Assembly (NCBI GenBank): GCA_964609755.1
Contig: CAZSSZ010000001.1
Coordinates: 1 to 43,474, forward strand
Length of the DNA: 43,474 nt
Source: an uncultured Flavobacteriaceae bacterium
GTDB lineage: Bacteria > Bacteroidota > Bacteroidia > Flavobacteriales > Flavobacteriaceae
Direction of reading: 5' to 3'
Shown here: positions 1-24,026 of the stretch, in pieces
Numbering within the stretch: the stretch's first letter is position 1
Layout of the letters: each line of letters opens with the position of its first letter
Made by a program: the position numbers and the translations under genes
The notes under the pieces: model-generated
Database searches by the model: none
Seen by the model: the letters and a program-made list of their open reading frames with translations, nothing else
What the model was told of the DNA's origin: nothing

Positions 1-1
1 T

Positions 2-2677
2 AGCGGACTTAACATTCGCATTCGTGGGATTACTACAAATGGAAATAACGCCCCCCTAATTTTGGTTGATGGAAACCGTATTGGTGACCTAAACGCCCTT
101 AACCCAAATGACATTGAAAGCATTAATGTGCTTAAAGATGCCACGGCGGGTATTTATGGCGTACAGGCTGCTAACGGGGTCATTTTGATAACCACCAAAT
201 CAGGAAGAAAAAATTCCGAATTGGATGTTCAAGTGGATACTTACACGGGACTTCAACTGACGAGCAAAAAACTGGATTTGATGGATTCGTACGACTTTGC
301 ACAATATGTAAACGATGCAAAAAACAAAACGGAGTTTTTTGTATATCCACAACAAGGTACCGACTGGCAAGACGAGGTGTTTGAAGTAGCGCCTATTTCG
401 GAAGTAAACGCCACAGTAAGTGGTGGAGGAGAAAAATCTGCTTATTCGTTTGGGGCAAGTTATTTAGACCAAGACGGTATTGTGGGCGGAAGTAAGAACA
501 ATTACGAACGCTTAACGGCTCGTATCAATTATCAATACGATATTTTGGATAACCTTAAAGTTACGGCTAACGCATTACATTTTAAGGCTACCAAACAAAA
601 CCTAGCGGAAGGCGGTATTGGCGCGGTACTTTACAATGCTGTAAACATCAACCCGACCATGCCGGTATATGATGAAAATGGTGCTTTTGCCTTAGCAAAT
701 GATATCTCACAAATTGAAATTATCAACCCGCTAGCGCAAATTGCGAATTCATATAGTACTGCGCGTACATCAAAGTGGTCAGGTCTTTTTGCATTAGAGT
801 ATGACTTTTGGGAAAACTTTACTGCCAAAACGCAGTTTAATATTAACCACGCTTCTGTTCTTGAAGATACTTTTAGACCAGAACAATATTACGGAACAGG
901 CAAATCTATTAACACGGTTAATTCTGTTGCTGAGTTAAGTGATTCAGACATCATAAATGAAGTAATTGATAATGGTGCCAATTATGACGACTGGACATTA
1001 GACAGTTATATCACGTATTCCAATTCCTTTAATGATGATCACTATTTAACCGTACTTTTAGGAACATCTTTATATCAAAATAAAGGTCTTTTCTTTGGAA
1101 ATACAGGAAGAACAACAACGGGAACAAATCAATTAGGGCAAACGGTTTGGGACGCAGGAATGACAATAGAACCCCGCTTTAATGCGGCAGCACTTGAGCG
1201 AGGTGATGATTGGTTTGACACGCGTCTGTCATCCGCGTTTGCGCGTGTGCAGTATAACTATAAAGGTAAATACCTTTTCTCTGGAGTTTTCCGAAGAGAT
1301 GTTTCTTCTCAGTTTTCTTCCGAAGATAACAGAAATGTGGGTTATTTCCCATCAGGTTCTATTGGATGGAATGTATCTGAGGAGGACTTTTTACAAAATG
1401 CGAATTGGATTTCAAATTTAAAACTACGCGCTAGTTATGGTGTGATTGGTAACGATCGGATTTCTTCATTTGCCTATTTAAGAAGATTAAATGGTTTGGC
1501 AACAGTTGATCCTGGAAACATTGATAAAATTACTGACCTTGTTTTTGGTAAGGCTCCTGGTAAACTTGATAACCCGTTTTTGAAATGGGAAGAGCAAGAA
1601 AACCTCAACGTGGGAATAGACTTAAGTTTATTCGACAATAAGCTTAGCTTAAGCGCAGATGTTTACCGCAAGAAAACAAAGGACTTATTATTAGAACCCC
1701 AAATTTCGGGTATAACCGGAAGTGGCGCACCAAGTTTTGTAAGCTTGAGTCCTTTTGTAAATGCTGGAACGGTTCAAAACCAAGGGATAGAGTTTTCATT
1801 GGGCTATAACGATAGCATAGGCGATGATTTTAGGTTTAACATCAATTATAACATGACCACCATTAACAACGAGGTGCTTTCACTCAATAATAGAACTACT
1901 CCTGTAGGTGGTGAATATGGTGTAGGAATTAGCCAAACAGGTATAACCCGTATGGCACCTGGTTTTGCACTAGGACATTACTACGGCTATAAAACAGATG
2001 GAATCTATCAAACTCAAACTGAAATCGATGCCTTAGACGCTGCTGCATTTGCACGACATGGGACAGATAAAAATGGTGATAAGGAAAAGTATAGCACTAT
2101 AGGTGAGATTGCTCCTGGTGACTTACGCTTTGTAGACACAAATGGTGATGGTCAAATTACTGCCGATGACCGTACAAATATTGGAGATCCAATCCCTGAT
2201 TTAGAAATGGGACTTAATATTGGGTTTACCTATAAAAACATTGATTTTAGCGCAAGTGCTTTTGCCTCTATAGGGCATGAGTTAGTACGCGATTATGAAC
2301 GTTCAGATTTATATGCCAATCGTGGCACCTATATGTTACGCAGATGGCAAGGTTCGGGAACAAGTAGTTCTGTACCAAGGGCTGTCAATGGAGCAAATGT
2401 AAACTCAGATTTCTTTAATGATTTCCATGTAGAAGACGCTTCCTATGTGCGTTTACAAAATGTTCAAATAGGATATAATTTAACCGACCTGCTTGGAGAG
2501 AATTCAAGTGTTGATAATTTCAGAATCTATGTGTCGGGGAACAATCTATTTACCATTACAGATTATAACGGCTACGATCCTTCTGCAAACAATGGAGACC
2601 CTCTAGGCGGAGGTATTGACAAAGGATTTTATCCGATAGCCTCTACCTATTTACTAGGTATTAACCTTAATTTTTAA
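2..2677 (+). CDS. SusC/RagA-type TonB-dependent outer-membrane glycan transporter, 5' end truncated by the window edge
   Basis: The frame is open from nt 2. Upstream of the listed TTG it reads SGLNIRIRGITTNGNNAPLILVDG..LNPNDIESINVLKDA, which is a TonB-dependent receptor plug motif. A long beta-rich remainder ends in a terminal Phe (..GINLNF). A SusD-like gene starts 5 nt downstream. Confidence 0.93.
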   Translation, partial: SGLNIRIRGITTNGNNAPLILVDGNRIGDLNALNPNDIESINVLKDATAGIYGVQAANGVILITTKSGRKNSELDVQVDTYTGLQLTSKKLDLMDSYDFAQYVNDAKNKTEFFVYPQQGTDWQDEVFEVAPISEVNATVSGGGEKSAYSFGASYLDQDGIVGGSKNNYERLTARINYQYDILDNLKVTANALHFKATKQNLAEGGIGAVLYNAVNINPTMPVYDENGAFALANDISQIEIINPLAQIANSYSTARTSKWSGLFALEYDFWENFTAKTQFNINHASVLEDTFRPEQYYGTGKSINTVNSVAELSDSDIINEVIDNGANYDDWTLDSYITYSNSFNDDHYLTVLLGTSLYQNKGLFFGNTGRTTTGTNQLGQTVWDAGMTIEPRFNAAALERGDDWFDTRLSSAFARVQYNYKGKYLFSGVFRRDVSSQFSSEDNRNVGYFPSGSIGWNVSEEDFLQNANWISNLKLRASYGVIGNDRISSFAYLRRLNGLATVDPGNIDKITDLVFGKAPGKLDNPFLKWEEQENLNVGIDLSLFDNKLSLSADVYRKKTKDLLLEPQISGITGSGAPSFVSLSPFVNAGTVQNQGIEFSLGYNDSIGDDFRFNINYNMTTINNEVLSLNNRTTPVGGEYGVGISQTGITRMAPGFALGHYYGYKTDGIYQTQTEIDALDAAAFARHGTDKNGDKEKYSTIGEIAPGDLRFVDTNGDGQITADDRTNIGDPIPDLEMGLNIGFTYKNIDFSASAFASIGHELVRDYERSDLYANRGTYMLRRWQGSGTSSSVPRAVNGANVNSDFFNDFHVEDASYVRLQNVQIGYNLTDLLGENSSVDNFRIYVSGNNLFTITDYNGYDPSANNGDPLGGGIDKGFYPIASTYLLGINLNF

Positions 2678-2682
2678 TCGTT

Positions 2683-4194
2683 ATGAAAAAATTACTAAAT
2701 ATTTTTATGTGTCTAACGCTAATTACAATAATTAGCTGTGACAGTTTTGTTGAAGTTGAGCCTTCAGGTCCTGTCGCTAACGACTTCTTTAAATCAGAAA
2801 AGGACTACAATGAAGCCCTTATTGGTGCATACGATATCCTACAGGCTACATACTGGAATACATTAGTTAGCGTAGTAGCTTCGGACGACTTTGCTGCTGG
2901 TGGAGACCCAGATACATACGATCAGCCCACACTACAAAATGTAAACCTAATGATACACTCTGAAAGAGATGAAAATCAGATACGGGATGTTTGGGGGCTA
3001 ATGTATGCGGGAATAAATAGAACCAACTATTTATTGGAAAACAAAGGCTTACTTGATTTTGCAGGTAAAGAACAAATTCTTGCAGAAGCATATTTTCTTC
3101 GTGCATACTACACTTTTGAGTTGGTAAAATTCTTTGGAAATGTGCCACTAAAAACAGAAACCCGAGACGGTGTACTACGTATGGTTGATGAGCGTGTGTT
3201 ATTTCAAGAAGAGTTTTCTATTGAACGCGTAGCAGATATCTCAACGGCATATAGTATTATTGAAGAAGATTTAAAGGAAGCGATTCCGAATCTTCCTGTT
3301 AGCCAAAGTTCTCCTTACAAAGCTACCAAAGGGGCTGCTCAAGCCCTGTTGGGTAAAGTCTATTTGTATCACGGAACCTATGATAGTGCCAAATTTGGCG
3401 AAGCGGCTACTGTCTTAGGCGATGTTATTTCTAGTAAAAAATACAGCTTAGCAACAGGTACTGACTATGAGGAACTCTTCGAGATTGGCGGCGAAAATGG
3501 TTCAGAGTCTGTTTTTGAGATTCAATATACCAGTGTTGAAGCCGCTACGTGGGAGTGTATTTCTTGTAGCCAAGGAACATACTTTGTCAAATTTAACGGA
3601 CCTCGTGATTTATCAGATAGTGTATTTGAAAATGGTTGGGGTTTTTGTTTGCCTTCTGTTGAGCTTTACGATTTGTTTGATGCTACTGATAAAAGACGGG
3701 ATGTTACGTTTTTTGATTTGAGGCAGAAAGACGCTAACGACTATGGTGTAACTAGAGACCACACAGGCCTAGCAAACAGAAAGTATATGCCTAGAAAGTT
3801 ACCTGCCAGAGCCGGTTCAGATCCGTTAAATTATGACAATAACTACCGTGCCATCCGCTATGCAGATGTATTGCTGATGGCAGCCGAAGCCGAAGCACAA
3901 AGTGGTGGAGCAAATGCTGAAGACTATTTAAACGAAGTGCGTGCTAGAGCCTATGGCGACAACAGCAATGATTACAGTGCTACCGAAGGTAGTCTGCTAG
4001 ATGCGATTTATACAGAAAGACGCAAAGAATTGGCAGGCGAAGGGCACCGTTTCTTTGACCTAGTACGCACCAAAAAAGCAGCCGCTGCAATTGACGGCTT
4101 TACCGAAAATAAAAATGAACTGTTCCCAATTCCGCTTATTGAGCTGAAGTTAGCAGAAGCGGTTGACCGTTGGAAACAAAATCCAGGATATTAA
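2683..4194 (+). CDS. SusD/RagB-family outer-membrane glycan-binding lipoprotein
   Basis: It has a lipoprotein signal (..LITIISC-D) and sits immediately after SusC. SusD-like features are present (..YFLRAYYTFELVKFFGNVPL.., ..ERRKELAGEGHRFFDLVR.., FPIP near the C-terminus). Size is 503 aa. Confidence 0.92.
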   Translation: MKKLLNIFMCLTLITIISCDSFVEVEPSGPVANDFFKSEKDYNEALIGAYDILQATYWNTLVSVVASDDFAAGGDPDTYDQPTLQNVNLMIHSERDENQIRDVWGLMYAGINRTNYLLENKGLLDFAGKEQILAEAYFLRAYYTFELVKFFGNVPLKTETRDGVLRMVDERVLFQEEFSIERVADISTAYSIIEEDLKEAIPNLPVSQSSPYKATKGAAQALLGKVYLYHGTYDSAKFGEAATVLGDVISSKKYSLATGTDYEELFEIGGENGSESVFEIQYTSVEAATWECISCSQGTYFVKFNGPRDLSDSVFENGWGFCLPSVELYDLFDATDKRRDVTFFDLRQKDANDYGVTRDHTGLANRKYMPRKLPARAGSDPLNYDNNYRAIRYADVLLMAAEAEAQSGGANAEDYLNEVRARAYGDNSNDYSATEGSLLDAIYTERRKELAGEGHRFFDLVRTKKAAAAIDGFTENKNELFPIPLIELKLAEAVDRWKQNPGY

Positions 4195-4219
4195 AAAATT
4201 AATTAAAAAATAGAATACA

Positions 4220-5659: not shown

Positions 5660-5697
5660 TAAACTATAGTACACCTAAAAGAAAAACAATTTTTTCT

Positions 5698-5735
5698 AAA
5701 CACCACCAGAAATTCACTTCTGGTGGTGTTTTATA
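5698..5735 (+). terminator. Rho-independent terminator-like hairpin after the SusC/SusD/binding-protein block
   Basis: A perfect 14-bp stem pairs 5698-5711 (aaacaccaccagaa) with 5718-5731 (ttctggtggtgttt). The loop is 6 nt (attcac) and the 3' side is T-rich. It lies 39 nt after the stop codon at 5657-5659. Confidence 0.75.
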
Positions 5736-5737
5736 AA

Positions 5738-5745
5738 TAAGTTTG
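5738..5745 (+). promoter_or_regulatory. Bacteroidota-type -7 promoter box (TAnnTTTG) upstream of the 1054-aa gene
   Basis: TAAGTTTG lies at 5738-5745. It is immediately downstream of the terminator hairpin and 14 nt upstream of the ATG at 5760. Confidence 0.4.
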
Positions 5746-5759
5746 TAAGAACCTAATAA

Positions 5760-8700
5760 ATGATAAATATGAAAAACAAGGTTATAAAAGTACTCTTTTG
5801 CCTGCTGATGCTTCCGGCGTTTGCCCAAGTAGAGGTAGTGCAAAACAACAACGGCACCAAGCTCGTTGTTAATGGCGAGGATTTTTTCGTCAGTGGGATG
5901 AATTGGGACTATTTCCCAAGGGGTACCAACTATTCGTTTAGTCTTTGGAACCAGTCTGATGACTTTATCAAAGCAGCTCTCGATGCTGAAATGGGACTCC
6001 TAAAAAACATGGGCGTAAATACCATCAGAACTTATACGGGTATTCAGCCGCGCTGGATTCAGTATATCTATGAAAATTACGGGATATATACCATGCTTAA
6101 CCATTCTTTTGGGCGTTACGGACTAACACTCGACGGGGCGTGGGTTGCCGTTACCGATTATAGAAACCCAAAAGCACAAGAGCTTTTGATGGCAGAAGTA
6201 ACTGCCCTCGCACAGGAGTATAAAGACACCCCCGGATTGCTGTTGTTTTTGCTGGGTAACGAAAACAACTACGGTTTGTTTTGGGCAGGTGCCGAAACGG
6301 AAGACTTTCCTGACGAAGAAGACCAACGCCGCGAGGTGGGCGAAAAGCGTGGTAGACCCATGTATAAACTTATGAACGATGCCGCCAAAGCCATGAAGGC
6401 GATTGACGGTTCGCATCCGGTTGCCATCTGTAACGGGGACTTATTGTTCTTGGATATTATTGCACAAGAGTGTAAAGATGTAGATGTATACGGGACAAAT
6501 ATGTACCGCGGAATTTCGTTTGGCGACACCTTTGAGCGTGTCAAAAATGAGTATGGAAAACCGGTACTCTTTACCGAATTTGGTTCGGATGCCTTTAATG
6601 CGCTTTCCAACAAAGAAGACCAAAAAGCACAGGCCGAATACATGGTCGGGCAGTGGAAGGAAATTTATGCCAATGCTGCCGGATTAGGCAAAACAGGTAA
6701 TTCCTTAGGGGGATTCACCTTCCAATTTAGCGATGGCTGGTGGAAATACGGACAAACCGATAACTTAGAAGTTCACGACAACAACGCTTCATGGTCTAAT
6801 GGAGGCTACCAGTTTGATTACAAACTTGGACAAAACAACATGAATGAGGAGTGGTTTGGTATTTGCGCCAAAGGACCTTCAGATGCTCGTGGGTTATACG
6901 ATTTGTATCCCAGAGCTGCATACTATGCACTAAAACAAGCACACACACTAAATCCTTTTGCAGATAGTGTAGATGCTTCCTTTGTAGAAAATCACTTTGA
7001 CAACATTATGCTAATGGATGCGGTGCTTCGTGCCCGCGCGGATAAAGCCGCTCTTGGGGGAGGCGAAAAAGTTCGTTTGAGCAACCTTAGAGCAGAATTT
7101 ACTTCCTATAATACAGGAGGAACGTTGCTAACTACGCCTACCACACCTAACCCGGAAAGCAATACTTTTCCCGACCAGCTCGGCTTCGATCACATGCAGT
7201 CGTATTTTGTGGGGGTAGAGGGAAATCCTGCCCCGGGAATGCGCGCCGAGGTTAACGTAAATGTTTTGGGAAATGTTGCAACCAATCCTATTGATGAGAT
7301 TTTCTATGAAAATCGTGGGCGTGCACAACGCGTAAACACCCCCGATGGCGTGGTTACCCTAAACGATCCAAACAGAGTGCAGGTCTACAATGCCGAATTT
7401 GAGTGGAATGCCAAAAACTTCGATCTAAGAGGTTTTTACAGAACGGGGCATTATCACTGGGCGTATGAGGGTGATATCTTCAATTTGTATCCCGAAGCCT
7501 ATTATGGACCTAATCTAGACATCTATAACGGTGAAATTTTAGGTGCTGAACTTGACGCCAAAGGCGCACTTTCAGGGCTTAAGGCTGCTTTTGGTCCGCA
7601 ATTGTGGTGGGGTGCAAACCCAACCGTACTCCTAAAATATTCTAAAGACCTCTTTAAGTGGAAGGTAACAGGAATCTACCACAGAGACCTCAATACCAAT
7701 TTGGAATATGATGAAAGCGGTAGACGTATTTTGGATCAAAACCAACTTACTTCAGGGGTAATTCCGGCCTGGCCAACAGAACGTGCTACACTTGCGTTTG
7801 AAAGAACCTTTGGAAACGTTGGCATTACCCTTGGAGGAATTTGGGGCGGTAGCCCACTTAATGGAAGCGGGTTCCAAATGGTAGATAAAAACCTGCACGC
7901 GGTGTTGGTGGATAAAATCAACAGCGAGGATAACTGGGGCGCCAAAGCCAAAATCACTTATCAAAAAGGTAGATTTAACTGGTACGCACAAGGTTCCTAC
8001 ATGGGATTGGTTGCCAATGGTGGCGCAGACCAAACCAAAACCTTTACAGGGTGGAAACTTAAAGATTCAGGCAGTGGAAACATGACCAATGTCTTATCAG
8101 GATTCACGGTATTGACGGGCAATCTTCAAATTGCACCGAACTTTTTGTACCAAAAACCATTGGTTGACCCGATGCCAAACAATCCTTTTGGACCGGGAAG
8201 ACTGCGTAACGTCATTGACGACCCATTTGCAGTTCGTGGTGGAAACAGAGAAACCCTAGGTGGAGAAATCCTTTTCACGTTTGACCCAACTCCAGGCACT
8301 TGGATGTATGAGTGGAACAACGACATGATGGAGGATGCAAAATTTGCTATGAGTGCTGGCTTTGTGTTTAGACACTTGCCCACTACGCAAGATGCGCACA
8401 TTGGGTTTATGGCAAACCGTCAATTCTTTGCCTTTGGCCAAAGTACTCCTGCAGAAGACCTTTGGGAAGCACATGCCCGTATGGTGTCTAAGCTAAGCCC
8501 CGAATTGGGGATGATTGGAAATTTCTATTATGGAAATGGACAAGGTAATGGCGATTCAGACCGTACCATTACTCGTTTTGGAGGCGATATCAGAATGATT
8601 TATAAAAACATGAAAATGATTTCGCATGTTAAAGTTAACGACTGGGGTCCATTTGACTACCACCGTGACTTTAACCTTACGTTCCCATTACAGCTAATGC

Positions 8701-8924: not shown

Positions 8925-8938
8925 TAAATTAGGAAAAA

Positions 8939-10354: not shown

Positions 10355-10369
10355 GCTAAAACCAACAAA

Positions 10370-11209: not shown

Positions 11210-11211
11210 CA

Positions 11212-12339: not shown

Positions 12340-12367
12340 CCAAATCGTAAAATGTGTATCTCCTCTT

Positions 12368-15898: not shown

Positions 15899-15944
15899 CA
15901 TTTAACTATTAAAATCATCTGCGGATATTGATTTCCCATAAGGT

Positions 15945-17219
15945 ATGAGCACTATGAAAATTTTCGGAAAGTTTGGATTTTTCACAGTAGCGCTTTGGGT
16001 TTTGGTATCCTGTAACACACAGCATTTGAGTATGAAAAGTAAAACAGCAGCAGAAATTCTAGGAAATCCGGACTACACGGCAATTTCCTATGGCGGATAT
16101 CGCACTACATTACGTGAGAATCAACCCACTATTGCGGAATTAAAAGATGACATGAAAATTCTTCACGCTATGGGGATTCGTATTATCAGAACCTATAATG
16201 TGCATCTGCCACAGGCAGAAAACATACTCAAGGCTATTTCGGAACTCAAAAAAGAGGATTCGGATTTTGAGATGTATGTGATGCTGGGCGCGTGGATAGA
16301 TTGTCTTAACGCATGGACTGAAAAAGTGGTAAATCACAACGTGGAAAGCCCTCGTAACGAAGAAGAAATCGCGAAGGCCGTTGCACTTGCCAATCAGTAC
16401 CCTGACATTGTGAAAGTACTTGCGGTGGGTAACGAAGCCATGGTAAAATGGGCGACAAGCTATTATGTGCAGCCTAGTGTTATTTTAAAATGGGTGAATC
16501 ACTTGCAAGACCTTAAAAAGAAGAACAAACTCCCAAAAGACGTGTGGATTACCAGCTCTGATAATTTCGCTTCGTGGGGCGGTGGAGACACCGCTTATCA
16601 CAATACCGATTTGGAGGCCTTAATTGCAGCAGTCGACTACATTTCTGTGCACACTTATCCCTTTCATGATACGCACTACAATCCCGGTTTTTGGGAAATT
16701 ACAGCTGAAAATGCAGTCAACAAAACCCAGCGAGAACTTATCGAGGAAGCCATGTTGCGGGCTCGGGACTATGCGATTTCGCAATTCAATAGCGTTAAAA
16801 AGTACATGCAAGATTTGGGGGTAGACAAACCCATTCACATTGGCGAAACAGGCTGGGCTACGGTTTCAAACGGCTACTACGGAAGAAAAGGATCCCATGC
16901 GGCAGACCAATACAAACAAGCGTTGTATTATAAGCGTATTGGCGAGTGGGCAAAGGAAAATAAGGTTGCCTGTTTTTATTTTGAAGCCTTTGATGAGCCT
17001 TGGAAAGAAGCGCATAACCCCAAAGGTTCTGAAAATCATTTTGGACTTTTCACCGTAGATGGCAAAGCAAAATATGCCCTTTGGGATTTGGTTAATAAGG
17101 GTGTTTTTAAGGGATTAACTCGAAACGGAAAACCCATTGGAAAAACCTTTAAGGGGAATAGCAAAAACCTCTATATCTCTGTGTTGCCCCCAAACATTTT
17201 AGAACCCAACATGAACTGA
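15945..17219 (+). CDS. GH17-like (clan GH-A) beta-1,3-glucanase lipoprotein
   Basis: It has a lipoprotein signal (..WVLVSC-N). TIM-barrel GH17-type motifs are present: IRIIRTYN, LAVGNEAMVKW (acid/base region), IHIGETGWAT (nucleophile region) and FYFEAFDEPWK. Confidence 0.7.
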   Translation: MSTMKIFGKFGFFTVALWVLVSCNTQHLSMKSKTAAEILGNPDYTAISYGGYRTTLRENQPTIAELKDDMKILHAMGIRIIRTYNVHLPQAENILKAISELKKEDSDFEMYVMLGAWIDCLNAWTEKVVNHNVESPRNEEEIAKAVALANQYPDIVKVLAVGNEAMVKWATSYYVQPSVILKWVNHLQDLKKKNKLPKDVWITSSDNFASWGGGDTAYHNTDLEALIAAVDYISVHTYPFHDTHYNPGFWEITAENAVNKTQRELIEEAMLRARDYAISQFNSVKKYMQDLGVDKPIHIGETGWATVSNGYYGRKGSHAADQYKQALYYKRIGEWAKENKVACFYFEAFDEPWKEAHNPKGSENHFGLFTVDGKAKYALWDLVNKGVFKGLTRNGKPIGKTFKGNSKNLYISVLPPNILEPNMN

Positions 17220-17221
17220 CC

Positions 17222-18706
17222 ATGAAAAATGCAGCAATATTAATCGGACTAATTCTTGTAATGATGAGCACTTCTTGTATGCAAAACCCTTTAGAAGTCG
17301 CCGTATATGAAACTTCAGAAAGCGGAAACAAACTTACACTACGCACCGATTTTCAAGCTACAGAAAACACTTCGCTTATCACACTTGACGTCTCAAAAGA
17401 ATATCAGACCATTACGGGGTTTGGAGGTGCTTTTACAGAGTCTTCGGCTTTCCTGCTCAATCAGCTAAGTAAAGAAAACAGAGACCGCATTTTAAAGGCG
17501 TATTTTTCAAAAGAAGGCGCACGCTATTCGCTCACGCGAACCCATATGAACTCGTGTGATTTTTCGCTCAACAACTATTCTTACACGCCTGTTCCTGGAG
17601 ATAAAAATTTAGAGCATTTTTCGATTGAGGAGGACAAAGAAGATTTAATTCCCATGATAAAAGATGCCATGGCAATCTCTGAGGATGGCTTCAAGTTGTT
17701 TGCTTCGCCTTGGACAGCAGCTCCGTGGATGAAAGACAACAACAAATGGGTAGGCGGAAAACTGCTCCCCGAATATTACGATACTTGGGCATTGTTTTTT
17801 TCAAAGTATGTTGATGCCTACAAAGCCGAGGGAATTGACATTTGGGGATTTACCGTAGAAAATGAGCCCCACGGAAACGGTGAAAATTGGGAGAGTATGC
17901 ATTACTCACCCGAAGAAATGACGCATTTTGTTCAGCATTTTCTAGGACCAAAATTGGAAGCTGATGGCAAAGGAGACCTTGTTATTTTGGGCTACGATCA
18001 AAACCGCGAAGGCATTCGCGAGTGGGTAGATGTGATGTATAAAGATGAAGCTTCATCTAAATATTACGACGGTACCGCCGTGCATTGGTATGAAAGTACC
18101 TACGATTATTTTCCCACAGAATTGCAATATGCCCACGAAAAGGCTCCAGATAAATACTTAATTCAAACCGAAGCCTGCGTAGATGCTGAAGTTCCTGTGT
18201 GGCAAGACGATAAATGGTACTGGAAAAAAGAAGCCACGGATTGGGGCTACGATTGGCGCGAGCCAGCAAAGAAGTATTTGCACCCAAAGTATGCGCCTGC
18301 TAATCGCTACGCAAGAGATATTATTGGATGTCTCAACAACTGGGTTGATGGCTGGGTAGACTGGAATATGGTATTAGATACTAAAGGCGGTCCCAATTGG
18401 GCAAACAATTGGTGCATTGCCCCTGTAATTGTTGACCCCGAAAAAGACGAAGTGTATTTCACGCCCTTGTACTACATCATGGCACACTTTAGCAAATTCA
18501 TTCGTCCAGGGGCTGTAATTATTGACGCGCAAAATACAGACGATGACCTTATGGTTGCTGCTGTCAAAAACCCCGATGAGACTATTGCAGTAGTAGTATT
18601 TAACGAAGGAAAAACCATAAAACACTTTGCATTAAACCTTAAAGACACATCGAAAAAAATTACCATTAGCCCACAGGCAATACAAACCATTATGATAAAC
18701 AACTAA
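17222..18706 (+). CDS. GH30 glycosidase lipoprotein (glucosylceramidase-like, probable beta-1,6-glucosidase)
   Basis: It has a lipoprotein signal (..MMSTSC-M). GH30 hallmarks are present: ITGFGGAFTES, SPWTAPPWMK-like (SPWTAAPWMKDN), FTVENEPHG (acid/base) and IQTEACV (nucleophile). It starts 2 nt after the previous gene. Confidence 0.85.
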   Translation: MKNAAILIGLILVMMSTSCMQNPLEVAVYETSESGNKLTLRTDFQATENTSLITLDVSKEYQTITGFGGAFTESSAFLLNQLSKENRDRILKAYFSKEGARYSLTRTHMNSCDFSLNNYSYTPVPGDKNLEHFSIEEDKEDLIPMIKDAMAISEDGFKLFASPWTAAPWMKDNNKWVGGKLLPEYYDTWALFFSKYVDAYKAEGIDIWGFTVENEPHGNGENWESMHYSPEEMTHFVQHFLGPKLEADGKGDLVILGYDQNREGIREWVDVMYKDEASSKYYDGTAVHWYESTYDYFPTELQYAHEKAPDKYLIQTEACVDAEVPVWQDDKWYWKKEATDWGYDWREPAKKYLHPKYAPANRYARDIIGCLNNWVDGWVDWNMVLDTKGGPNWANNWCIAPVIVDPEKDEVYFTPLYYIMAHFSKFIRPGAVIIDAQNTDDDLMVAAVKNPDETIAVVVFNEGKTIKHFALNLKDTSKKITISPQAIQTIMINN

Positions 18707-18716
18707 ATCAATACCC

Positions 18717-21065
18717 ATGAAAGCTCAACCCTTATCATCTCATAAAGTACCTATTACTCAAAAAATAGCCTTTGGCGTGGGAATGTTTGCAAATCAAATG
18801 TTCCCTGCAATTTTGGGAATCTTTATGGTTGTTTTGGTTCAAGACTTAGGTTTTCCCGGATGGATGTGGTCACTTATCTATTTTTTCCCAAGAATATTTG
18901 ACTCCATCACCGATCCTATTATGGGATTTATCTCAGATAACACAAAATCAAAATGGGGACGTCGTAGGCAATATGTTTTGATTGGAAGCATTATAATGGG
19001 AGTTGCTTACATATTTATGTGGCAGCTCTTTAAGGAAAACTCGTTGCAATTCAATTTCTGGTATTTCTTTTTATGGTCCCTTGTTTTTTATTTAGGGCTA
19101 ACCTTTTTTAGTGTGCCTTATGTAGCCATGGGGTATGAGATGAGTGAAGATTTTCATGAGCGTACCAATATTATGGCAATTGCGCAGTGGATTGGACAAT
19201 GGGCTTGGGTAATTGCGCCATGGTTTTGGGTGATTATGTATGACCCCGAATGGTTCCCATCTGCTGAAGTTGCGGTACGAGAATTGGCTATTTGGGTTGC
19301 CATTCCATGTGCGATTTGCGCTATGGTTCCGGCCATATTTATTGAGAGTAAATCTACTCTTAATGAAAATTATGAGCCTTTGAATGGGGCTAATATTGGC
19401 AATAGCCTTAAAAAGATTTATCACAGTTTTGTTGAGGCGTTTAAAATCAAAGAATTTAGAAAATTATGTGGCGCTACGTTTTTAATTTTTAATGCGTTCA
19501 ACACTGTTGCTGCGCTCACGTTTTTTGTCATTGTTTACAAGCTCTTTAACGGAGACGCTGGAGCTAGTGGCATCTGGGTATCTCTTTTTGGTTGTTTAGG
19601 GGCCTTGGGAACCACATTTATTGTTATCCCAATTGTTACGTGGATGTCTAAGATTTTTGGAAAAAAGAAGGCATTTTTACTTGCTCAGGGAATCTCGGTA
19701 TTGGGCTACATAATGCTTTGGTTTTTGTTCGTTCCTGGAAAACCTTGGATGTACATTATTGCCCTCCCATTCTTTTCGTTTGGAATTGGAAGTTTATTTA
19801 CCATTATGATGTCTATGACTGCAGATGTCATTGATATTGATGAATTAAATTCAGGGAAACGAAGGGAAGGAATTTTTGGTGCTATATATTGGTGGATGGT
19901 CAAAGTAGGCTTTGCCATAGCTGGTGCCTTGAGTGGTGTTATCATTGCTCTTGTAGGCTTCAACCCCGACTTAACCACCGTGGAACAACAATCCGCTGTT
20001 GATGGGTTACACGCATTTTTCTGTTTCTTCCCCTTAGCAGGAACACTAATAGCCATGTGGATTATGCGTGACTATAGTATAGACGAAACTCGAGCAAATG
20101 AAATTAGAGCGCAATTAAAAGCGCAAAAAGGAACGCCAAAGCCCCTTTCGTATCAGCAAATGCAAGGGAAACTCGCTAACCTAACAGGCAAAACTTTTAC
20201 TTCTAGACTGCGTTCCGATGTTGATTTCTCAGGGCATACAATATCAAAACAAAAAGCGTTATTTGACAACGCCCTTAGCAAGGGGTTGCATGGCATTTGC
20301 TTTAGTCCATATCGCGAACACCAAAGTGTAGAAGACACCTTATCTGAAAGCCAAATTAAGGAACGTATGGAAGTGGTTGCTCCTTATGCGAACTGGGTGC
20401 GTTCGTTTTCTTGTACAGGCGGGAATGAGCATATTCCCGCGGTTGCCAAATCAAAGCATCTAAAAACTATGGTTGGCGCATGGATTGGGCAGGACAAAGA
20501 AGAAAATGATAAGGAAATAAAGGCGCTTATTGATCTAGCGAAAAAGGGATTGGTAGATATTGCAGTAGTAGGTAACGAGGTCTTGATGCGTGACGATTTG
20601 AGCGAACAGCATATTCTTGACTACTTGGCAGAAGTAAAACAAGCTATTCCCGGAATAAAAGTTGGCTATGTAGACGCATACTACCAGTTTATTCAGCGTC
20701 CAAAACTAGTTGAAGCTTGTGATGTAATTCTTATTAATTGCTATCCGTTTTGGGAAGGCAGTAATATTGAATTCGCCACATCGAATTTGAAAGAAATGTA
20801 CCAAGCAACTCAAAATATAGCCAACGGCAAGCCAGTTATTATTACAGAAACAGGTTGGCCAAATCAGGGAGATCGCGTTGGTGAAGCAAAGCCATCACCT
20901 CAAAATGCGATGGAATATTTTGTCAATGTCACTACTTGGGCAGCATTAGAAAAAGCACCAATATTCTACTTTTCTTCTTTTGATGAGTCTTGGAAATTAC
21001 ATCATGAAGGAGATGTTGGCGCACGATGGGGAATATGGGATAAATACGAAAAACGTAAATACTAA
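18717..21065 (+). CDS. Fusion protein: GPH/MFS-family glycoside:cation symporter (aa ~1-455) plus C-terminal GH17 domain (aa ~505-782)
   Basis: The reading frame is uninterrupted. The N-terminal part has about 12 hydrophobic segments and the GPH signature FDSITDPIMGFISDNTKSKWGRRRQ. The C-terminal part has GH17 motifs VVGNEVL and IITETGWP and is closely paralogous to the next gene. Confidence 0.85.
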   Translation: MKAQPLSSHKVPITQKIAFGVGMFANQMFPAILGIFMVVLVQDLGFPGWMWSLIYFFPRIFDSITDPIMGFISDNTKSKWGRRRQYVLIGSIIMGVAYIFMWQLFKENSLQFNFWYFFLWSLVFYLGLTFFSVPYVAMGYEMSEDFHERTNIMAIAQWIGQWAWVIAPWFWVIMYDPEWFPSAEVAVRELAIWVAIPCAICAMVPAIFIESKSTLNENYEPLNGANIGNSLKKIYHSFVEAFKIKEFRKLCGATFLIFNAFNTVAALTFFVIVYKLFNGDAGASGIWVSLFGCLGALGTTFIVIPIVTWMSKIFGKKKAFLLAQGISVLGYIMLWFLFVPGKPWMYIIALPFFSFGIGSLFTIMMSMTADVIDIDELNSGKRREGIFGAIYWWMVKVGFAIAGALSGVIIALVGFNPDLTTVEQQSAVDGLHAFFCFFPLAGTLIAMWIMRDYSIDETRANEIRAQLKAQKGTPKPLSYQQMQGKLANLTGKTFTSRLRSDVDFSGHTISKQKALFDNALSKGLHGICFSPYREHQSVEDTLSESQIKERMEVVAPYANWVRSFSCTGGNEHIPAVAKSKHLKTMVGAWIGQDKEENDKEIKALIDLAKKGLVDIAVVGNEVLMRDDLSEQHILDYLAEVKQAIPGIKVGYVDAYYQFIQRPKLVEACDVILINCYPFWEGSNIEFATSNLKEMYQATQNIANGKPVIITETGWPNQGDRVGEAKPSPQNAMEYFVNVTTWAALEKAPIFYFSSFDESWKLHHEGDVGARWGIWDKYEKRKY
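20229..21062 (+). other. GH17 catalytic domain portion of the transporter fusion (approximate boundaries)
   Basis: The region LHGICFSPY..WVRSFSC..GNEHIP..KTMVGAW..VVGNEVL..GYVDAYY..NCYPFWEG..IITETGWP..FYFSSFDESWK aligns collinearly with the 303-aa GH17 encoded at 21071-21982. Confidence 0.8.
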
Positions 21066-21070
21066 TAAAA

Positions 21071-21982
21071 ATGTCATACAGAGAAGGTATAGAATTTAGC
21101 TTAGAAGAATTAGAATACAAATCGTATCAAGGCGTAAATTTTGATAATTATACAACCGAGGACTTAAAAGCGCTCTGGAGAAAAACACTCAAGTTGGGAA
21201 TGCATGGAATTTGTTTTAGCATGTATGAAGACGGGCAAGAGCCTGGAGATACAATAACGGTGGCTCAAGTGGAACGCCGTATCAAAATACTCAAACCCTT
21301 CACCAAATGGGTACGCTCTTTTTCATGTATTGAGGGCAATGAACACATTCCGCGCATTGCAAAAAAACATGGTATTAAAACGATGGTTGGTGCTTGGCTT
21401 GGCGATGACCCTGAAAAAAACGAAGAAGAAATAAAGGCATTAATTGCCCTTGCTAACGAAGGCTGTGTGGATATTGCTGCCGTGGGCAATGAGGTGCTTT
21501 ATCGCAACGATTTAACCCTAGAGGAATTGCTCGCATTTATGAAACAAGTTAGAGATGCAATTCCAGCCCATATTCCTATTGGATATGTAGATGCGTATTA
21601 CGAGTTTTCTTCACACCCCGAACTCGTAGAGCATTCAGACGTAATTTTATCCAATTGCTATCCGTTTTGGGAGGGTTGTCCGGAAGAATGGGCGCTAAAC
21701 CATATGCAAAGTATGTATGGGCAAGCCATGCACGCTGCAAAAGGTAAAAAAGTAATCATTACTGAAACGGGATGGCCCAGCAAAGGGGAGCCTCTCAAGG
21801 GTTCTGTGCCGTCCGAAGAACATGCTATGAAATACTTCATCAACACCCAAGCTTGGGCAAAACAGGCCAACATAGACGTGTTTTATTTTTCGTCTTTTGA
21901 TGAGTCTTGGAAAGTTGGTCCAGAAGGCGAAGTGGGTGCGTATTGGGGACTTTGGGATAAACATGAAAAACTCAAGTTTTAA
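21071..21982 (+). CDS. Signal-less (predicted cytoplasmic) GH17-family beta-1,3-glucanase/transglycosylase
   Basis: The 303-aa protein has no signal peptide. It carries the motifs AVGNEVL and IITETGWPSKG plus FYFSSFDESWK. It starts 5 nt after the fusion gene and is a paralogue of that gene's C-terminal domain. Confidence 0.85.
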   Translation: MSYREGIEFSLEELEYKSYQGVNFDNYTTEDLKALWRKTLKLGMHGICFSMYEDGQEPGDTITVAQVERRIKILKPFTKWVRSFSCIEGNEHIPRIAKKHGIKTMVGAWLGDDPEKNEEEIKALIALANEGCVDIAAVGNEVLYRNDLTLEELLAFMKQVRDAIPAHIPIGYVDAYYEFSSHPELVEHSDVILSNCYPFWEGCPEEWALNHMQSMYGQAMHAAKGKKVIITETGWPSKGEPLKGSVPSEEHAMKYFINTQAWAKQANIDVFYFSSFDESWKVGPEGEVGAYWGLWDKHEKLKF

Positions 21983-22010
21983 TTATAGCCATTAACACAA
22001 GGTATTCCCT

Positions 22011-24026
22011 ATGAACGTTTACATCAATACTTTAGCCCTAGCCGTCGTTGTCCTAATTGTTGGCTGTGCCCCCAAACCCGATCGACAAAATAAGAAGGAG
22101 ATTGCCAAAAAAGTTGACGCTATTGTGCTTCAGATGACACTGGCCGAAAAAGTAGGTCAAATGACTCAAATTGATATGCGTTTGTTGGATGATTACAGCG
22201 ATATTAAGGAGTATCATATTGGCTCAATACTTAGTGGAGGTGGAGCAGTTCCCAAAACAAATACACCAAAAGCGTGGCTTGACATGGTTAATGGATTCCA
22301 AGAAATTGCCATGAGTGATCGACTTGGCATTCCATTAATTTACGGAATTGATGCTGTCCACGGACACAATAATGTTCTAGGGGCTACGGTGTTCCCTCAT
22401 AATTTAGCCCTTGGCGCTTCGAATGACGCTGACCTCGTTTATCGAGTAAACAAAGCCACGGCTGTTGAAGTTGCCGCTACAGGCATTCACTGGACTTTTT
22501 CACCTTGTATTACCATTCCACAAGATGCAAGATGGGGGCGTTTTTACGAGGGGTTTGGTCAAACTACCGATATTGTTGACGGGCTTACCGAAGCTGCTGT
22601 TTTGGGTTACCAAGACCGCCTTTTGGAAGTGCAAAACAAGCAAGTTGCTGCTTGTGCTAAGCATTTTATTGGAGATGGTGCTACAGTTTGGGGAACTGGC
22701 ACTCGAGTTGATGGGATGCACGACTATAAGTTGGATAGGGGTGATGTGCAATTAGAGGATAAAACCCTACGTGAAATTTACCTCCCCCCATACAAAACGG
22801 CTATTGCTGCCGATGTAAAAACCATTATGGCGAGTTTTAACAGCATTCGTGGAGAAAAGTGTCACGGCAGTAAGTATATCCTTACGGATTTGCTCAAAGA
22901 CGAACTTGGTTTTGAAGGCTTTGTGGTTTCAGATTGGGCAGGCATAGACGAAATTCCAGGGAATTATAAATCCGATGTTATCAATGGGGTAAATGCAGGT
23001 ATAGATATGTTTATGGTTCCTGGATTTATGGAGGGGCAAAACCAACAGCATTACAAAGTATTTATTCAATATTTGATAGCGGCGGTCAATGAGGGAAGCG
23101 TCTCTATGGAGCGCATCGACGATGCAGTACGTAGAATTTTGAAAGTAAAGATGGAATTGGGTCTTTTTGACAACCCTTATATCGATGACTCCTATCTTTC
23201 TGAAATAGGCTCACCAGCACACCGTGCACTTGCCCGTGAAGCTGTTCAAAAATCGACAGTTTTACTAAAAAATGATGGAGTACTGCCGCTTAACAACGCA
23301 GCGTCCATAACCGTGGTAGGTTCTGGCGCAAACAATTTGGGTGTGCAAAATGGGGGTTGGACTACTGAGTGGCAAGGATTTTTCACCCCTGATTTCGACT
23401 TTTTAGACTTTAATGCTGATGGCGTTTTAACCTTGAAGGAATATAATAATCAGCTTAAAAAAATCTACGAAGATAAGTTCGATGTCGCCGCTTGGGCTGG
23501 GCATTTTAATGAAATTGACGCAGATAAAAACAACAAAGCGAACCGTAAAGATTTTTCTAATTTTATGGCAAACCGCGTGCTTCAACCCAATGGCACAACC
23601 ATCGTAGAAGGACTGCGTCAAGTGGCACCTAATGCAAAAATTACATATGACCCTAACGCCAATGCTATTGCAAAAGAAGATATTGTGATTGCGGTTGTTG
23701 GGGAGTATCCCTATGCCGAAGGCTTTGGCGATGATGCGGATTTGCGTATGAATAAAGCGGATTTGGAAATATTGGCTCGGGCAAACACCTCTGGAAACCC
23801 CTTAATTGTTGTCTTGCTTTCTGGACGACCGCTAATGGTTCATGAACAGCTATCACAATGGGATGCTTTTGTTGCTTCATTTTTGCCAGGCATGGCAGGC
23901 GAAGGCATTGCAGATGTGCTTTTTGGAAGGGTAAATCCGCAAGCCAAACTCAGCTTTACATGGCCAACAAATCCTAATGGTGAGGGCGAATTGTTTGCGC
24001 AGGGTACTGGCATTCAGTTCGAATAA
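22011..24026 (+). CDS. GH3 beta-glucosidase/exo-beta-1,3-glucanase lipoprotein with an inserted EF-hand pair
   Basis: It has a lipoprotein signal (..VLIVGC-A). GH3 motifs are present: LAEKVGQMTQ, GIDAVHGHNN, KHFIGDG, GFVVSDW (nucleophile Asp region) and GGWTTEWQG. A ~64-aa extra segment lies between WQG and GTTIVEG. Confidence 0.9.
   Translation: MNVYINTLALAVVVLIVGCAPKPDRQNKKEIAKKVDAIVLQMTLAEKVGQMTQIDMRLLDDYSDIKEYHIGSILSGGGAVPKTNTPKAWLDMVNGFQEIAMSDRLGIPLIYGIDAVHGHNNVLGATVFPHNLALGASNDADLVYRVNKATAVEVAATGIHWTFSPCITIPQDARWGRFYEGFGQTTDIVDGLTEAAVLGYQDRLLEVQNKQVAACAKHFIGDGATVWGTGTRVDGMHDYKLDRGDVQLEDKTLREIYLPPYKTAIAADVKTIMASFNSIRGEKCHGSKYILTDLLKDELGFEGFVVSDWAGIDEIPGNYKSDVINGVNAGIDMFMVPGFMEGQNQQHYKVFIQYLIAAVNEGSVSMERIDDAVRRILKVKMELGLFDNPYIDDSYLSEIGSPAHRALAREAVQKSTVLLKNDGVLPLNNAASITVVGSGANNLGVQNGGWTTEWQGFFTPDFDFLDFNADGVLTLKEYNNQLKKIYEDKFDVAAWAGHFNEIDADKNNKANRKDFSNFMANRVLQPNGTTIVEGLRQVAPNAKITYDPNANAIAKEDIVIAVVGEYPYAEGFGDDADLRMNKADLEILARANTSGNPLIVVLLSGRPLMVHEQLSQWDAFVASFLPGMAGEGIADVLFGRVNPQAKLSFTWPTNPNGEGELFAQGTGIQFE
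23379..23591 (+). other. EF-hand-pair-like insertion within the GH3 gene
   Basis: Loop 1 is DFNADGVLTLKE (nt 23406-23441) and fits the canonical DxNxDGxLxxxE pattern. Loop 2 is DADKNNKANRKD (nt 23517-23552) and fits the DxDxNxxxxxxD variant. Both loops are flanked by helix-like segments (PDFDFL / YNNQLKKIY; AGHFNEI / FSNFMANR). Confidence 0.6.

Follow-up and report, generated by a model that had tools for sequence, protein, structure and literature searches.

A probable variant B laminarin PUL of marine Flavobacteriaceae encodes a GH158-like protein with a predicted outer-membrane barrel

Introduction

Laminarin is among the largest fixed-carbon fluxes in the ocean, and loci of the kind described here are the main bacterial machinery for its turnover. 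The closest characterized systems are the laminarin PULs known as variant B, defined by GH16, at least two GH17 and GH30 genes beside susC/D (Kappelmann et al. 2019, PMC6298971). Laminarin induction has been shown for homologous PULs of Formosa, Polaribacter and F. agariphila (PMC6246565, PMC6298971, 10.64898/2026.01.10.698779), and the F. agariphila PUL, described with GH16_3, GH17, GH30_1, GH149 and GH158 genes, requires the upstream regulator BguR for its ~80-fold induction (10.64898/2026.01.10.698779). In Formosa, FbGH30, FbGH17A and FbGH17B work in sequence (PMC6246565). The Muricauda lutaonensis PUL runs in the order LuxR-type regulator, 'GH2', GH16, GH149, GH17A, GH30_1, MFS and GH17B (PMC13188888, PMC11005184), and its MlGH17B is a transglycosylase that lacks a signal peptide (PMC11005184). 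The GH149 enzyme Pro_7066 is phosphorolytic on β-1,3-oligosaccharides and breaks laminaritriose and laminaribiose down to glucose (PMC6484121). A transporter-GH17 fusion (FbGH17B), a cytoplasmic GH17B (MlGH17B) and GH149 are thus already described inside such PULs.

Here we analyse a 43,474-nt stretch of DNA from an uncultured Flavobacteriaceae bacterium (assembly GCA_964609755.1, contig CAZSSZ010000001.1; hereafter the window). We conclude that its first 24 kb is very probably a laminarin (β-1,3-glucan with β-1,6 branches) PUL of marine Flavobacteriaceae, of variant B, with the degradation route proposed below and a BguR-type activator encoded upstream.

Results

Nucleotides 2-24026 are filled by 13 co-directional plus-strand genes (Table 1), separated, in gene order, by 5, 25, 100, 14, 15, 2, 28, 46, 2, 10, 5 and 28 nt; minus-strand ORFs within these genes are short shadows. 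An earlier note on this DNA had described thirteen plus-strand genes with spacers of 2-46 nt apart from one 100-nt gap, and the coordinates bear this out, although the count omits a 14th plus-strand gene and the 5' end is truncated. The additional gene encodes a small lipoprotein without a match in a Pfam search, homologues of which (44-51% identical) occupy the same position in related loci (L085-L093). Adjacent susC and susD genes (Plug, SusD_RagB and SusD-like_3 domains) together with ten same-strand CAZyme genes identify the locus as a PUL.

Table 1. Features of the locus, with positions in the window
Feature	Position (nt)	Strand	Remarks
SusC-like TonB-dependent transporter	2..2677	+	Plug domain; N-terminal ~183 residues beyond window edge
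SusD-like lipoprotein	2683..4194	+	SusD_RagB 1.8e-29, SusD-like_3 1.4e-22 (Pfam); lipobox ...IISC
Surface glycan-binding lipoprotein (SGBP), 479 aa	4220..5659	+	PKD-like module, two tandem ~175-aa CBM-like repeats; putative binding
Hairpin, 14-bp stem	5698..5731	+	After susC-susD-SGBP block; terminator- or attenuator-like
-7 promoter element match, TAAGTTTG (TAnnTTTG)	5738..5745	+	Read from sequence; putative function
1054-aa protein	5760..8924	+	SPI signal; predicted GH158-like TIM barrel (aa ~24-400), helical linker, predicted ~26-strand outer-membrane-type β-barrel (aa 438-1052)
471-aa lipoprotein	8939..10354	+	Lipobox VSC, weak Big_2 match; CBM-like modules either side of Ig-like module
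GH16 endo-β-1,3-glucanase lipoprotein, 279 aa	10370..11209	+	Pfam GH16 4e-26; GEIDIME; lipobox ISC then NPDD
GH16 endo-β-1,3-glucanase lipoprotein, 375 aa	11212..12339	+	N-terminal PKD-like module; GEIDIME
GH149 β-1,3-glucan/oligosaccharide phosphorylase	12368..15898	+	No signal peptide (cytoplasmic)
GH17A endo-β-1,3-glucanase lipoprotein, 424 aa, periplasmic	15945..17219	+	Pfam GH17
GH30 (subfamily-1-like) β-1,6-glucosidase lipoprotein, putatively debranching	17222..18706	+	Pfam GH30 2.1e-77; ENEP, TEAC
GPH/MFS_2 symporter (aa 1-~470) fused to GH17B domain (aa ~500-782)	18717..21065	+	One 782-aa ORF
Free GH17B, 303 aa, cytoplasmic, paralogue of fused domain	21071..21982	+	No signal peptide
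GH3 exo-β-glucosidase lipoprotein	22011..24026	+	Pfam GH3 N- and C-terminal domains
Small conserved lipoprotein, 158 aa	24069..24545	+	N-terminus MRLITLCSVVILVCCSQ; 3' end of locus

Pfam, NCBIfam and PDB searches agree with the families first read from motifs (SusC/SusD, two GH16, three GH17, GH30 and GH3), and none of the Pfam or NCBIfam assignments, all of which were confirmed, falls in a family unrelated to β-glucans. The gene called GH94/GH149-like in the earlier note proves to be a true GH149, scoring 1803 bits against the cut-off of 1150 for the NCBIfam equivalog NF058639 and matching Pro_7066 (PDB 6hq6) over aa 40-1175 (E 0, 1576 bits); its predicted activity is phosphorolysis of β-1,3-oligosaccharides. 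The GH16-375 catalytic domain matches ZgLamA (4bq1, E 4.6e-101) and GH17-424 matches FbGH17A (6fcg, E 6.5e-179). The closest PDB entries to the GH30 protein are glucosylceramidases, enzymes of GH30_1 type, and a debranching function is suggested by analogy with FbGH30 (PMC6246565); PDB hits of the GH3 protein are exo-1,3/1,4-β-glucanases. All three GH17 modules carry VGNE and ETGW and exceed the Pfam cut-off of 28.2 bits (36.9, 31.1 and 44.9 bits).

In the fusion protein the GH17 match (31.1 bits, aa 707-782) follows an MFS_2 match (7.3e-62; NCBIfam gph) in which aa 19-457 cover profile positions 2-427 of 427. Such an end-to-end match implies that there are 12 TM helices and that the two termini both lie inside, which should put the fused GH17 domain in the cytoplasm. 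It shares 53% identity with the free GH17-303, whose closest PDB entry is a β-1,3-glucanosyltransferase (4wtp, 6.5e-38), and among related loci, 40 of the 44 that could be tested carry a free GH17B behind the fusion. Lipoboxes are present at the N-termini of SusD, the 479-aa and 471-aa proteins, both GH16, GH17-424, GH30 and GH3; GH149 and GH17-303 have no signal, and the 1054-aa protein has one of SPI type. We infer the localisations from such N-terminal sequence rules, and they make the compartment map of the earlier note sensible overall, except that GH17 should occupy two compartments rather than three, with a periplasmic GH17A and a cytoplasmic GH17B that is both tethered and free.

The two proteins proposed in the earlier note as multi-module binding lipoproteins do possess modules and lipoboxes (FAC followed by TEEDD in the 479-aa protein, which also gives a weak Pfam match to PKD). 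Beyond weak hits, Pfam, NCBIfam and PDB gave no match for either, and PDB sequence searches returned only noise. The 479-aa protein belongs to no PDB or Pfam family, and we infer glycan binding by both proteins from context and weak module homology. The 479-aa SGBP gene contains a direct repeat with a period of 537 nt (92% identity across 300 nt), on which Tandem Repeats Finder was blank because the period exceeds its 500-nt limit. By hhalign this repeat shares homology with the module at the C-terminus of the 471-aa protein (86.5%), as does the N-terminal module of the SGBP with that of GH16-375 (87.8%).

The 1054-aa protein had been called secreted, and the SPI signal agrees; structural modelling adds a GH158-like domain and a predicted outer-membrane barrel. 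An AlphaFold input of 24 close homologues had given a pLDDT of 53.7 and an unusable C-terminal half, but an alignment of 107 diverse sequences, gathered by representative and profile searches, yielded an AlphaFold2 model with pLDDT 88.1 and pTM 0.80. The top six Foldseek matches to the model are all GH158 (E 2e-14 to 3e-13), and by fold similarity aa ~24-400 appears GH158-like: the modelled domain is a clan GH-A (β/α)8 fold closest to GH158, with both catalytic glutamates, E168 (GNENNYG) and E273 (TEFG), kept and invariant across the 107 sequences. By sequence, a profile of the protein gave a non-significant E of 0.3 against PDB GH158 (identity ~15-20%), and a PDB search returned noise only. 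In the database search the family ran to thousands of proteins from several diderm phyla, and its only annotation is "GH2 TIM-barrel protein". In 77/77 loci, the next gene downstream of the 1054-aa homologue encodes the 471-aa lipoprotein.

The order SusC-SusD-(SGBP)-1054-471-GH16-GH149-GH17A-GH30-MFS was found in 80 genome loci, and the arrangement recurs in more than 60 of the flavobacterial genomes scanned. Loci with a 1054-aa homologue contain GH16 in 63/63, GH149 in 59/63 and GH17A in 57/63 cases; conversely, the 1054-aa protein is present in essentially every scanned variant-B-type locus. With two GH16, three GH17 modules and one GH30, the locus is, by gene content, a member of the published variant B (Formosa, Polaribacter, Muricauda), and synteny with the described PULs (PMC6298971, PMC6246565, PMC13188888, 10.64898/2026.01.10.698779) upholds the likeness to laminarin PULs of marine Flavobacteriia that the earlier note had pointed to.

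That note had also reported no regulator. None lies within the window, but the absence is an edge effect, since the window begins ~183 codons into susC. From codon ~183 onward, the full-length SusC (1074 aa) of a relative, L012, matches the truncated SusC at 88% identity, and the Pfam Plug match of the truncated protein begins only at profile position 47; contigs with an identical SusD all begin at the same base as the window or are shorter. In L012 and L017, the relatives nearest by synteny, a 930-936-aa protein is encoded directly upstream of susC. We took as the BguR layout a propeller/Y_Y_Y sensor, one TM helix and a GerE HTH, with no phosphorelay domains, directly upstream of susC, and both proteins resemble it: their Y_Y_Y matches have E-values of 2e-7 and 6e-9, Reg_prop and a TM segment are present, and GerE, at 1.2e-4 to 1.3e-4, falls slightly under Pfam's cut-off.

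Discussion

All family assignments and the PUL synteny agree with the central proposal of the earlier note, a laminarin-type SusC/D locus that joins hydrolysis to phosphorolysis. The family identities anchor a route whose localisations and order of steps we propose as follows. A membrane-spanning one-component activator of BguR type, its gene just upstream of the window, would most likely switch on expression. At the cell surface, the 479-aa and 471-aa lipoproteins would bind laminarin and the two GH16 lipoproteins would cut it to oligosaccharides, which SusC/SusD would import across the outer membrane; a second outer-membrane component would be the 1054-aa protein, seated by its ~26-strand barrel, with the GH158-like β-1,3-glucanase predicted on the periplasmic side. 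In the periplasm, GH30 could remove β-1,6 branches, GH17A could shorten the backbone to DP2-4 and GH3 could free glucose. The GPH-family symporter would then carry short oligosaccharides across the inner membrane to its own cytoplasmic GH17B domain, free GH17B might hydrolyse or transglycosylate them, and GH149 phosphorolysis would yield glucose 1-phosphate and glucose, saving one ATP per bond. We also considered cytoplasmic GH17B and GH149 as a β-1,3 analogue of the MalQ/MalP maltodextrin pair, a comparison weakened because the GH149 enzyme Pro_7066 already takes laminaritriose and laminaribiose to glucose.

Might the locus serve another substrate, or be two loci rather than one? Relatives of the GH16 and GH3 enzymes are also active on mixed-linkage glucans (PMC6298971), GH158 enzymes accept curdlan and mixed-linkage oligosaccharides (PDB 9p2f; PMC13195107), and the barrel protein has homologues both in freshwater Flavobacterium and among soil-type phyla, all of which would suit a fungal or yeast β-1,3/1,6-glucan, curdlan, mixed-linkage β-1,3/1,4-glucan or pustulan as the target; yet it is the combination of GH17A/GH17B and GH30_1 that marks laminarin-induced PULs (PMC6246565, PMC6298971), GH17 enzymes are specific to undecorated β-1,3 stretches (PMC6298971) and the closest relatives of the locus are marine MAGs, so that a target other than algal laminarin seems very improbable. 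As for its unity, the 100-nt gap at 5660-5759 holds, as the earlier note had observed, both a hairpin (MFE -26.1 kcal/mol, z = -5.5, with 0/200 shuffles as stable) and a -7 box 14 nt ahead of the ATG. A terminator scan skipped this hairpin because the scan applies a T-run rule; L012 has a hairpin of its own, unlike in sequence, at the equivalent place. A sigma-70 scan told us nothing, with 47 sites where 45.6 would be expected (the Bacteroidota consensus differs). That the only long spacer carries these elements could mean that the locus is no single functional unit and that the susC-susD-SGBP block (2-5659) is regulated apart from a neighbouring operon of enzyme genes (5760-24026). PULs, however, often show partial termination behind the susD or SGBP gene. 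Gene order is also kept across genera, and in F. agariphila the entire PUL is co-induced 70- to 110-fold with one regulator needed (10.64898/2026.01.10.698779); we consider two independent operons quite unlikely, and in a single PUL the hairpin and internal promoter-like box could instead tune the ratio of transporter to enzyme transcripts.

The C-terminal 620 aa of the 1054-aa protein invite a similar question, for stacked CBM or β-sandwich domains, forming a soluble all-β accessory region of a periplasmic or secreted glucanase, would also present amphipathic strands. No Pfam (even at E <= 10) or NCBIfam model covers aa 430-1054, nor does a PDB sequence match, the TM-scores of the Foldseek matches to outer-membrane barrels are only 0.2-0.33, and the protein ends in ...INIGK, with no aromatic end residue. 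Those same Foldseek matches, however, rank next after GH158, with E 4e-9 to 1e-7, and belong to the barrels of TonB-dependent transporters and a porin, and the model places 26 long antiparallel strands in the domain, with connectors that alternate between long and short (20.9 versus 5.25 aa). Distant homologues terminate in Y-x-h-x-F/Y β-signal-like strands, the region is free of cysteine and rich in G, N and T, and the family is restricted to diderm phyla. A soluble region is on this evidence unlikely, and an outer-membrane-type barrel is the predicted structure.

The 1054-aa and 471-aa proteins may even constitute an undescribed outer-membrane module, a reading we offer as speculative and rather doubtful, in which a ~26-strand barrel, a periplasm-facing GH158-like glucanase and a CBM-bearing surface lipoprotein that caps or serves them could admit or thread β-1,3-glucan without TonB, cutting it on arrival. 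We found no outer-membrane barrel tied to GH158 or to such PULs in the searchable literature. Within 8-kb flanks, the β-glucan clusters of Myxococcota-like, deltaproteobacterial and Gemmatimonadota genomes contain no gene for SusC/D or a TonB-dependent transporter, and the barrel could therefore be the main uptake route there; in myxobacterial-type loci the barrel gene is followed by genes for two small lipoproteins, for which BLASTP gave no significant match to the 471-aa protein.

Because its gene set, transporter-enzyme fusion, phosphorylase and likely regulator are all published, the locus adds nothing conceptually new. Its under-studied part is the 1054-aa protein, which appears to combine a β-1,3-glucanase with an outer-membrane barrel, and which could matter in that its C-terminal 60%, without a Pfam or NCBIfam model, is predicted to form a very large barrel. 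Should this barrel serve as a channel, or anchor a periplasmic or surface glucanase, models of laminarin uptake by SusC/D only would be incomplete.

Compared with known systems, the locus has susC/susD, GH16, at least two GH17 and GH30 in common with variant B, Polaribacter Hel1_33_49 and Formosa agariphila KMM3901, and differs from them in a second GH16 and a terminal GH3, hallmarks of variant A, in having both transporter-fused and free GH17B, and in a regulator that lies beyond the window. With Formosa sp. Hel1_33_131 (Unfried et al. 2018, PMC6246565) it shares an FbGH17A orthologue (GH17-424), the GH30 debranching enzyme, GH149 and an MFS-GH17 fusion resembling FbGH17B (FORMB_24740), but Formosa B has the genes in three PULs; here a single locus contains them, with an extra free GH17B after the fusion. 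MlGH17B and GH17-303 both lack a signal peptide; in Muricauda, MFS and GH17B are separate genes, and the 'GH2' there is probably a 1054-aa homologue, since its NCBI product name is identical. Among GH158 enzymes, BuGH158 (6pal), from a gut Bacteroides β(1,3)-glucan locus, and GH158(Pro) (9p26/9oro) are closest in fold to aa ~24-400, with Foldseek E-values of 2e-14 to 5e-14, but known GH158 are ~400-aa proteins without the 620-aa C-terminal barrel. The pairing of a gene for a predicted barrel of at least 22 strands with a lipoprotein gene is reminiscent of SusC/SusD, BtuB-BtuG and LptD/LptE, and the Foldseek barrel matches include 8p98 and 8bmx; unlike those systems, the 1054-aa protein has no plug, TonB box or sequence similarity to them, its N-terminal domain is an apparent enzyme, and its predicted ~26-strand barrel would be LptD-sized.

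Results

Gene layout and family assignments

Thirteen ORFs run in one direction from nt 2 to 24026, with spacers of 5, 25, 100, 14, 15, 2, 28, 46, 2, 10, 5 and 28 nt in order, exactly the co-directional layout that the earlier note had read from the sequence alone. The hairpin and -7 box that it placed in the 100-nt gap were both located (see table); the hairpin has an MFE of -26.1 kcal/mol (z = -5.5), equalled by 0 of 200 shuffles, and L012, a related locus from our scans, carries a hairpin at the equivalent position with an unrelated sequence. All thirteen genes are confirmed, but the count must be extended by a conserved fourteenth, encoding a 158-aa lipoprotein, whose homologues (44-51% identity) occupy the equivalent 3' site of related loci, among them some without GH3 (L085, L086 and L092). 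From 24.5 to 43.5 kb the window carries housekeeping genes (Mfd, MetRS, SerRS, RibF, KsgA, MgtE, SSB, aspartokinase), and no regulator or sugar-metabolism gene was found there.

Coordinates of mapped elements in the window and of stretches bearing barrel-glucanase homologues outside Bacteroidota
Feature	Coordinates	Position	Remark
Tandem duplication in the 479-aa lipoprotein gene (4220-5659)	4724-5560		537 nt, 92% identical over 300 nt
Hairpin, 14-bp stem	5698-5731	inside the sole long spacer, 5660-5759	MFE -26.1 kcal/mol
TAAGTTTG	5738-5745	14 nt 5' of ATG	matches Bacteroidota -7 element TAnnTTTG
Fourteenth gene, 158-aa lipoprotein (MRLITLCSVVILVCCSQ...)	24069-24545	3' of GH3	no Pfam match
Homologue-bearing stretch in locus L164	8001-12439
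Homologue-bearing stretch in locus L166	8001-12506
Homologue-bearing stretch in locus L165	8001-11162

The family calls made earlier from motifs all hold in Pfam, NCBIfam and PDB comparisons. SusC shows only the tail of its Plug domain because the gene is cut at the window edge; SusD is confirmed, as are both GH16 enzymes, the catalytic domain of the 375-aa one matching Zobellia LamA (4bq1) at E 4.6e-101. Judged by sequence, the 1176-aa protein is a true GH149 (1803 bits against NCBIfam equivalog NF058639, cut-off 1150; E 0 to PDB 6hq6, Pro_7066, across aa 40-1175) and the 424-aa GH17 is the orthologue of FbGH17A (6fcg, E 6.5e-179). The nearest matches of GH30 are GH30_1-type glucosylceramidases, those of GH3 exo-1,3/1,4-beta-glucanases. 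The 782-aa protein joins a complete GPH/MFS_2 transporter to a GH17 domain, to which the free 303-aa GH17 is 53% identical, as against only 24% to the 424-aa enzyme; the nearest match of this free paralogue is the beta-1,3-glucanosyltransferase 4wtp (6.5e-38). The C-terminal domain of GH3 (gene at 22011-24026) also contains an insertion of about 65 aa near aa 470-535 (240 residues over 173 profile positions), whose EF-hand-like loops DFNADGVLTLKE and DADKNNKANRKD suggest that it binds calcium.

The N-termini bear out the signal types listed in the earlier compartment map: a set of lipoproteins, a single protein secreted through an SPI signal and two that lack a signal. That map also placed GH17 enzymes in three compartments, and this part probably needs amending. 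The MFS_2 profile aligns end to end with the fusion protein, which has about 12 hydrophobic segments, and GPH transporters have both termini in the cytoplasm; on that topology the GH17 domain of the fusion, like the free paralogue, should be cytoplasmic, which would leave GH17 enzymes in two compartments.

A predicted barrel-glucanase

The 1054-aa protein is the single part of the locus to which the earlier note gave no family. Sequence searches said little about it: Pfam returned only a weak GH2-type TIM barrel, NCBIfam and PDB returned nothing, and an initial AlphaFold prediction was of low quality (pLDDT 53.7). When its C-terminal 625 residues were searched against 1.84 billion representatives, 496 clusters were recovered. 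Nearly all are signal-peptide proteins of about 1000-1100 aa that share the two-domain layout; a few are stand-alone versions of about 590 aa. A profile search found homologues of 40-67% identity in Myxococcota, 'Deltaproteobacteria', Gemmatimonadota, Zixibacteria, Ignavibacteria and Saprospiraceae.

Modeling from a 107-sequence alignment gave a confident predicted structure (pLDDT 88.1, pTM 0.80) in which a TIM barrel (aa ~24-400) leads through a helical linker into 26 long antiparallel strands (438-1052). The nearest Foldseek matches of the N-terminal domain are GH158 endo-beta-1,3-glucanases (9p26, 9oro and 6pal, E 2e-14 to 5e-14), and E168 (GNENNYG) and E273 (TEFG), the acid/base and nucleophile expected of a clan GH-A enzyme, are invariant in the alignment. 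For the rest of the protein, the next group of matches includes TonB-dependent transporter barrels (8p98, 4e-9; 8bmx, 1e-7) and the C. jejuni porin MOMP (1e-7). Long strand connectors (mean 20.9 aa) take turns with short ones (mean 5.25 aa; 9 of 12 at most 6 aa), as is the rule for outer-membrane proteins; by this rule both barrel termini are predicted to lie in the periplasm, where the short turns are. Distant homologues have alternating hydrophobic strands at the C-terminus, closing with F, Y, L or I, and the predicted barrel region contains neither cysteine nor a TM helix. On this model, the 1054-aa protein is quite likely an outer-membrane barrel whose GH158-like glucanase domain probably faces the periplasm. 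The barrel could serve as an anchor or as a channel, and the 471-aa lipoprotein may bind it; the searchable literature library yielded no description of such a barrel-glucanase.

Some relatives (P0124, P0258, P0271-P0276) reach 1200-1380 aa through additional N-terminal modules, P0258 for instance having a CBM_4_9 domain at its start (3.6e-8), so accessory binding modules can be placed ahead of the TIM barrel. In three non-Bacteroidota genomes (Myxococcota-like, deltaproteobacterial and Gemmatimonadota; L164-L166), the homologue belongs to beta-glucan clusters with GH16, GH17, GH1, GH3, MFS_2 and ROK genes; within 8 kb of it, neither SusC/D nor a TonB-dependent transporter is encoded. The next genes downstream in L164 and L166 encode two small conserved lipoproteins (189-200 aa and 221-227 aa).

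Binding lipoproteins and the window edge

The 479-aa and 471-aa lipoproteins have no significant Pfam, NCBIfam or PDB match; they share modules with each other and with an enzyme. The repeat of the 479-aa SGBP aligns with the C-terminal module of the 471-aa protein (gene at 8939-10354; profile-profile hhalign 86.5%, E 4.6e-6), and the N-terminal PKD-like module of the SGBP with the N-terminal module of the 375-aa GH16 (gene at 11212-12339; hhalign 87.8%). Both lipoproteins presumably bind glycan. The near-identical contig L001, from another assembly, has a single repeat in its version of the gene (4220-5122), giving 300 aa against 479 aa, a difference that reflects either strain-level copy-number variation or collapse of the repeat in assembly.

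No regulator lies in the window, as the earlier note stated for its first 24 kb, but this absence is an edge effect. The window starts about 183 codons into susC. L012 and L017, 84% identical in the 1054-aa protein, are the nearest loci in which sequence 5' of susC is available; there the adjacent upstream gene encodes a protein of 930-936 aa that combines a signal sequence with propeller/Y_Y_Y domains, a single TM helix and, at the C-terminus, a GerE HTH. BguR, the activator without which the F. agariphila laminarin PUL does not reach its 70- to 110-fold induction (10.64898/2026.01.10.698779), has this architecture. The window and the independent contig L001 (ERZ650154 NODE_581) start at the identical base within susC, and several related MAG contigs (L004-L007) are broken within the SGBP gene with its repeats, at 220-725 nt 5' of the 1054-aa gene. 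The susC/SGBP region seems to break assemblies systematically, concealing the regulator and the susC 5' end.

Discussion

What the analysis shows directly are the families of the proteins, the order of the genes and how well it is conserved, the kinds of signal and a predicted fold. The earlier interpretation of an outside-to-cytoplasm route is supported, with three amendments: the GH17 topology, the edge-hidden regulator and the fourteenth gene. Glycan would be bound and cleaved by GH16 at the cell surface and imported by SusC/D; in the periplasm, GH30 would debranch it, GH17A and the GH158-like domain would cut internally, and GH3 would act from the ends. Short oligosaccharides may then be symported by the GPH protein and processed in the cytoplasm by the tethered and free GH17B, with GH149 phosphorolysis releasing glucose 1-phosphate. 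An upstream BguR-type regulator may activate the locus, and the hairpin and internal promoter could set the ratio of susCD to enzyme transcripts.

The arrangement recurs widely. A genome scan with the 1054-aa protein as query found 80 loci with the same gene order throughout, in Winogradskyella, Kordia, Psychroserpens, Flavivirga, Jejuia, Tenacibaculum, Flavobacterium and many MAGs. Where flanks suffice, the 471-aa homologue lies directly downstream in 77/77 loci, and GH16 is present in 63/63, GH149 in 59/63 and GH17A in 57/63. A metagenome scan with the 303-aa GH17 found the transporter fusion followed by free GH17B in 40 of 44 testable loci, a sample biased by selection on that free paralogue. 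The less ordinary part of the locus is the predicted barrel-glucanase fusion and its putative lipoprotein partner, which merit targeted follow-up.

The arrangement is already described in the literature, and published PULs, together with our scans, bear out the suggestion that similar gene sets occur in laminarin PULs of marine Flavobacteriia. FbGH30, FbGH17A and the MFS-fused FbGH17B were characterised by Unfried et al., who also observed GH149 in Formosa PULs and called the MFS-GH17 fusion common (PMC6246565); MlGH17B is a transglycosylase without a signal (PMC11005184). A Muricauda PUL has the order LuxR, 'GH2', GH16, GH149, GH17A, GH30_1, MFS, GH17B (PMC13188888), and that of F. agariphila contains GH16_3, GH17, GH30_1, GH149 and GH158 (10.64898/2026.01.10.698779). 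The modules common to the binders and the 375-aa GH16 follow the shuffling between binders and GH16 that Zuhlke et al. reported for laminarin-binding CBMs (10.1101/2023.09.07.556657). Laminarin PUL variant B, as defined by Kappelmann et al., combines GH16, at least two GH17 and GH30, and comprises 17 PULs in 53 North Sea isolates (PMC6298971). The locus is thus a member of a well-described kind of laminarin PUL, with minor particulars: a variant B core is joined with two GH16 genes and a terminal GH3, features of variant A.
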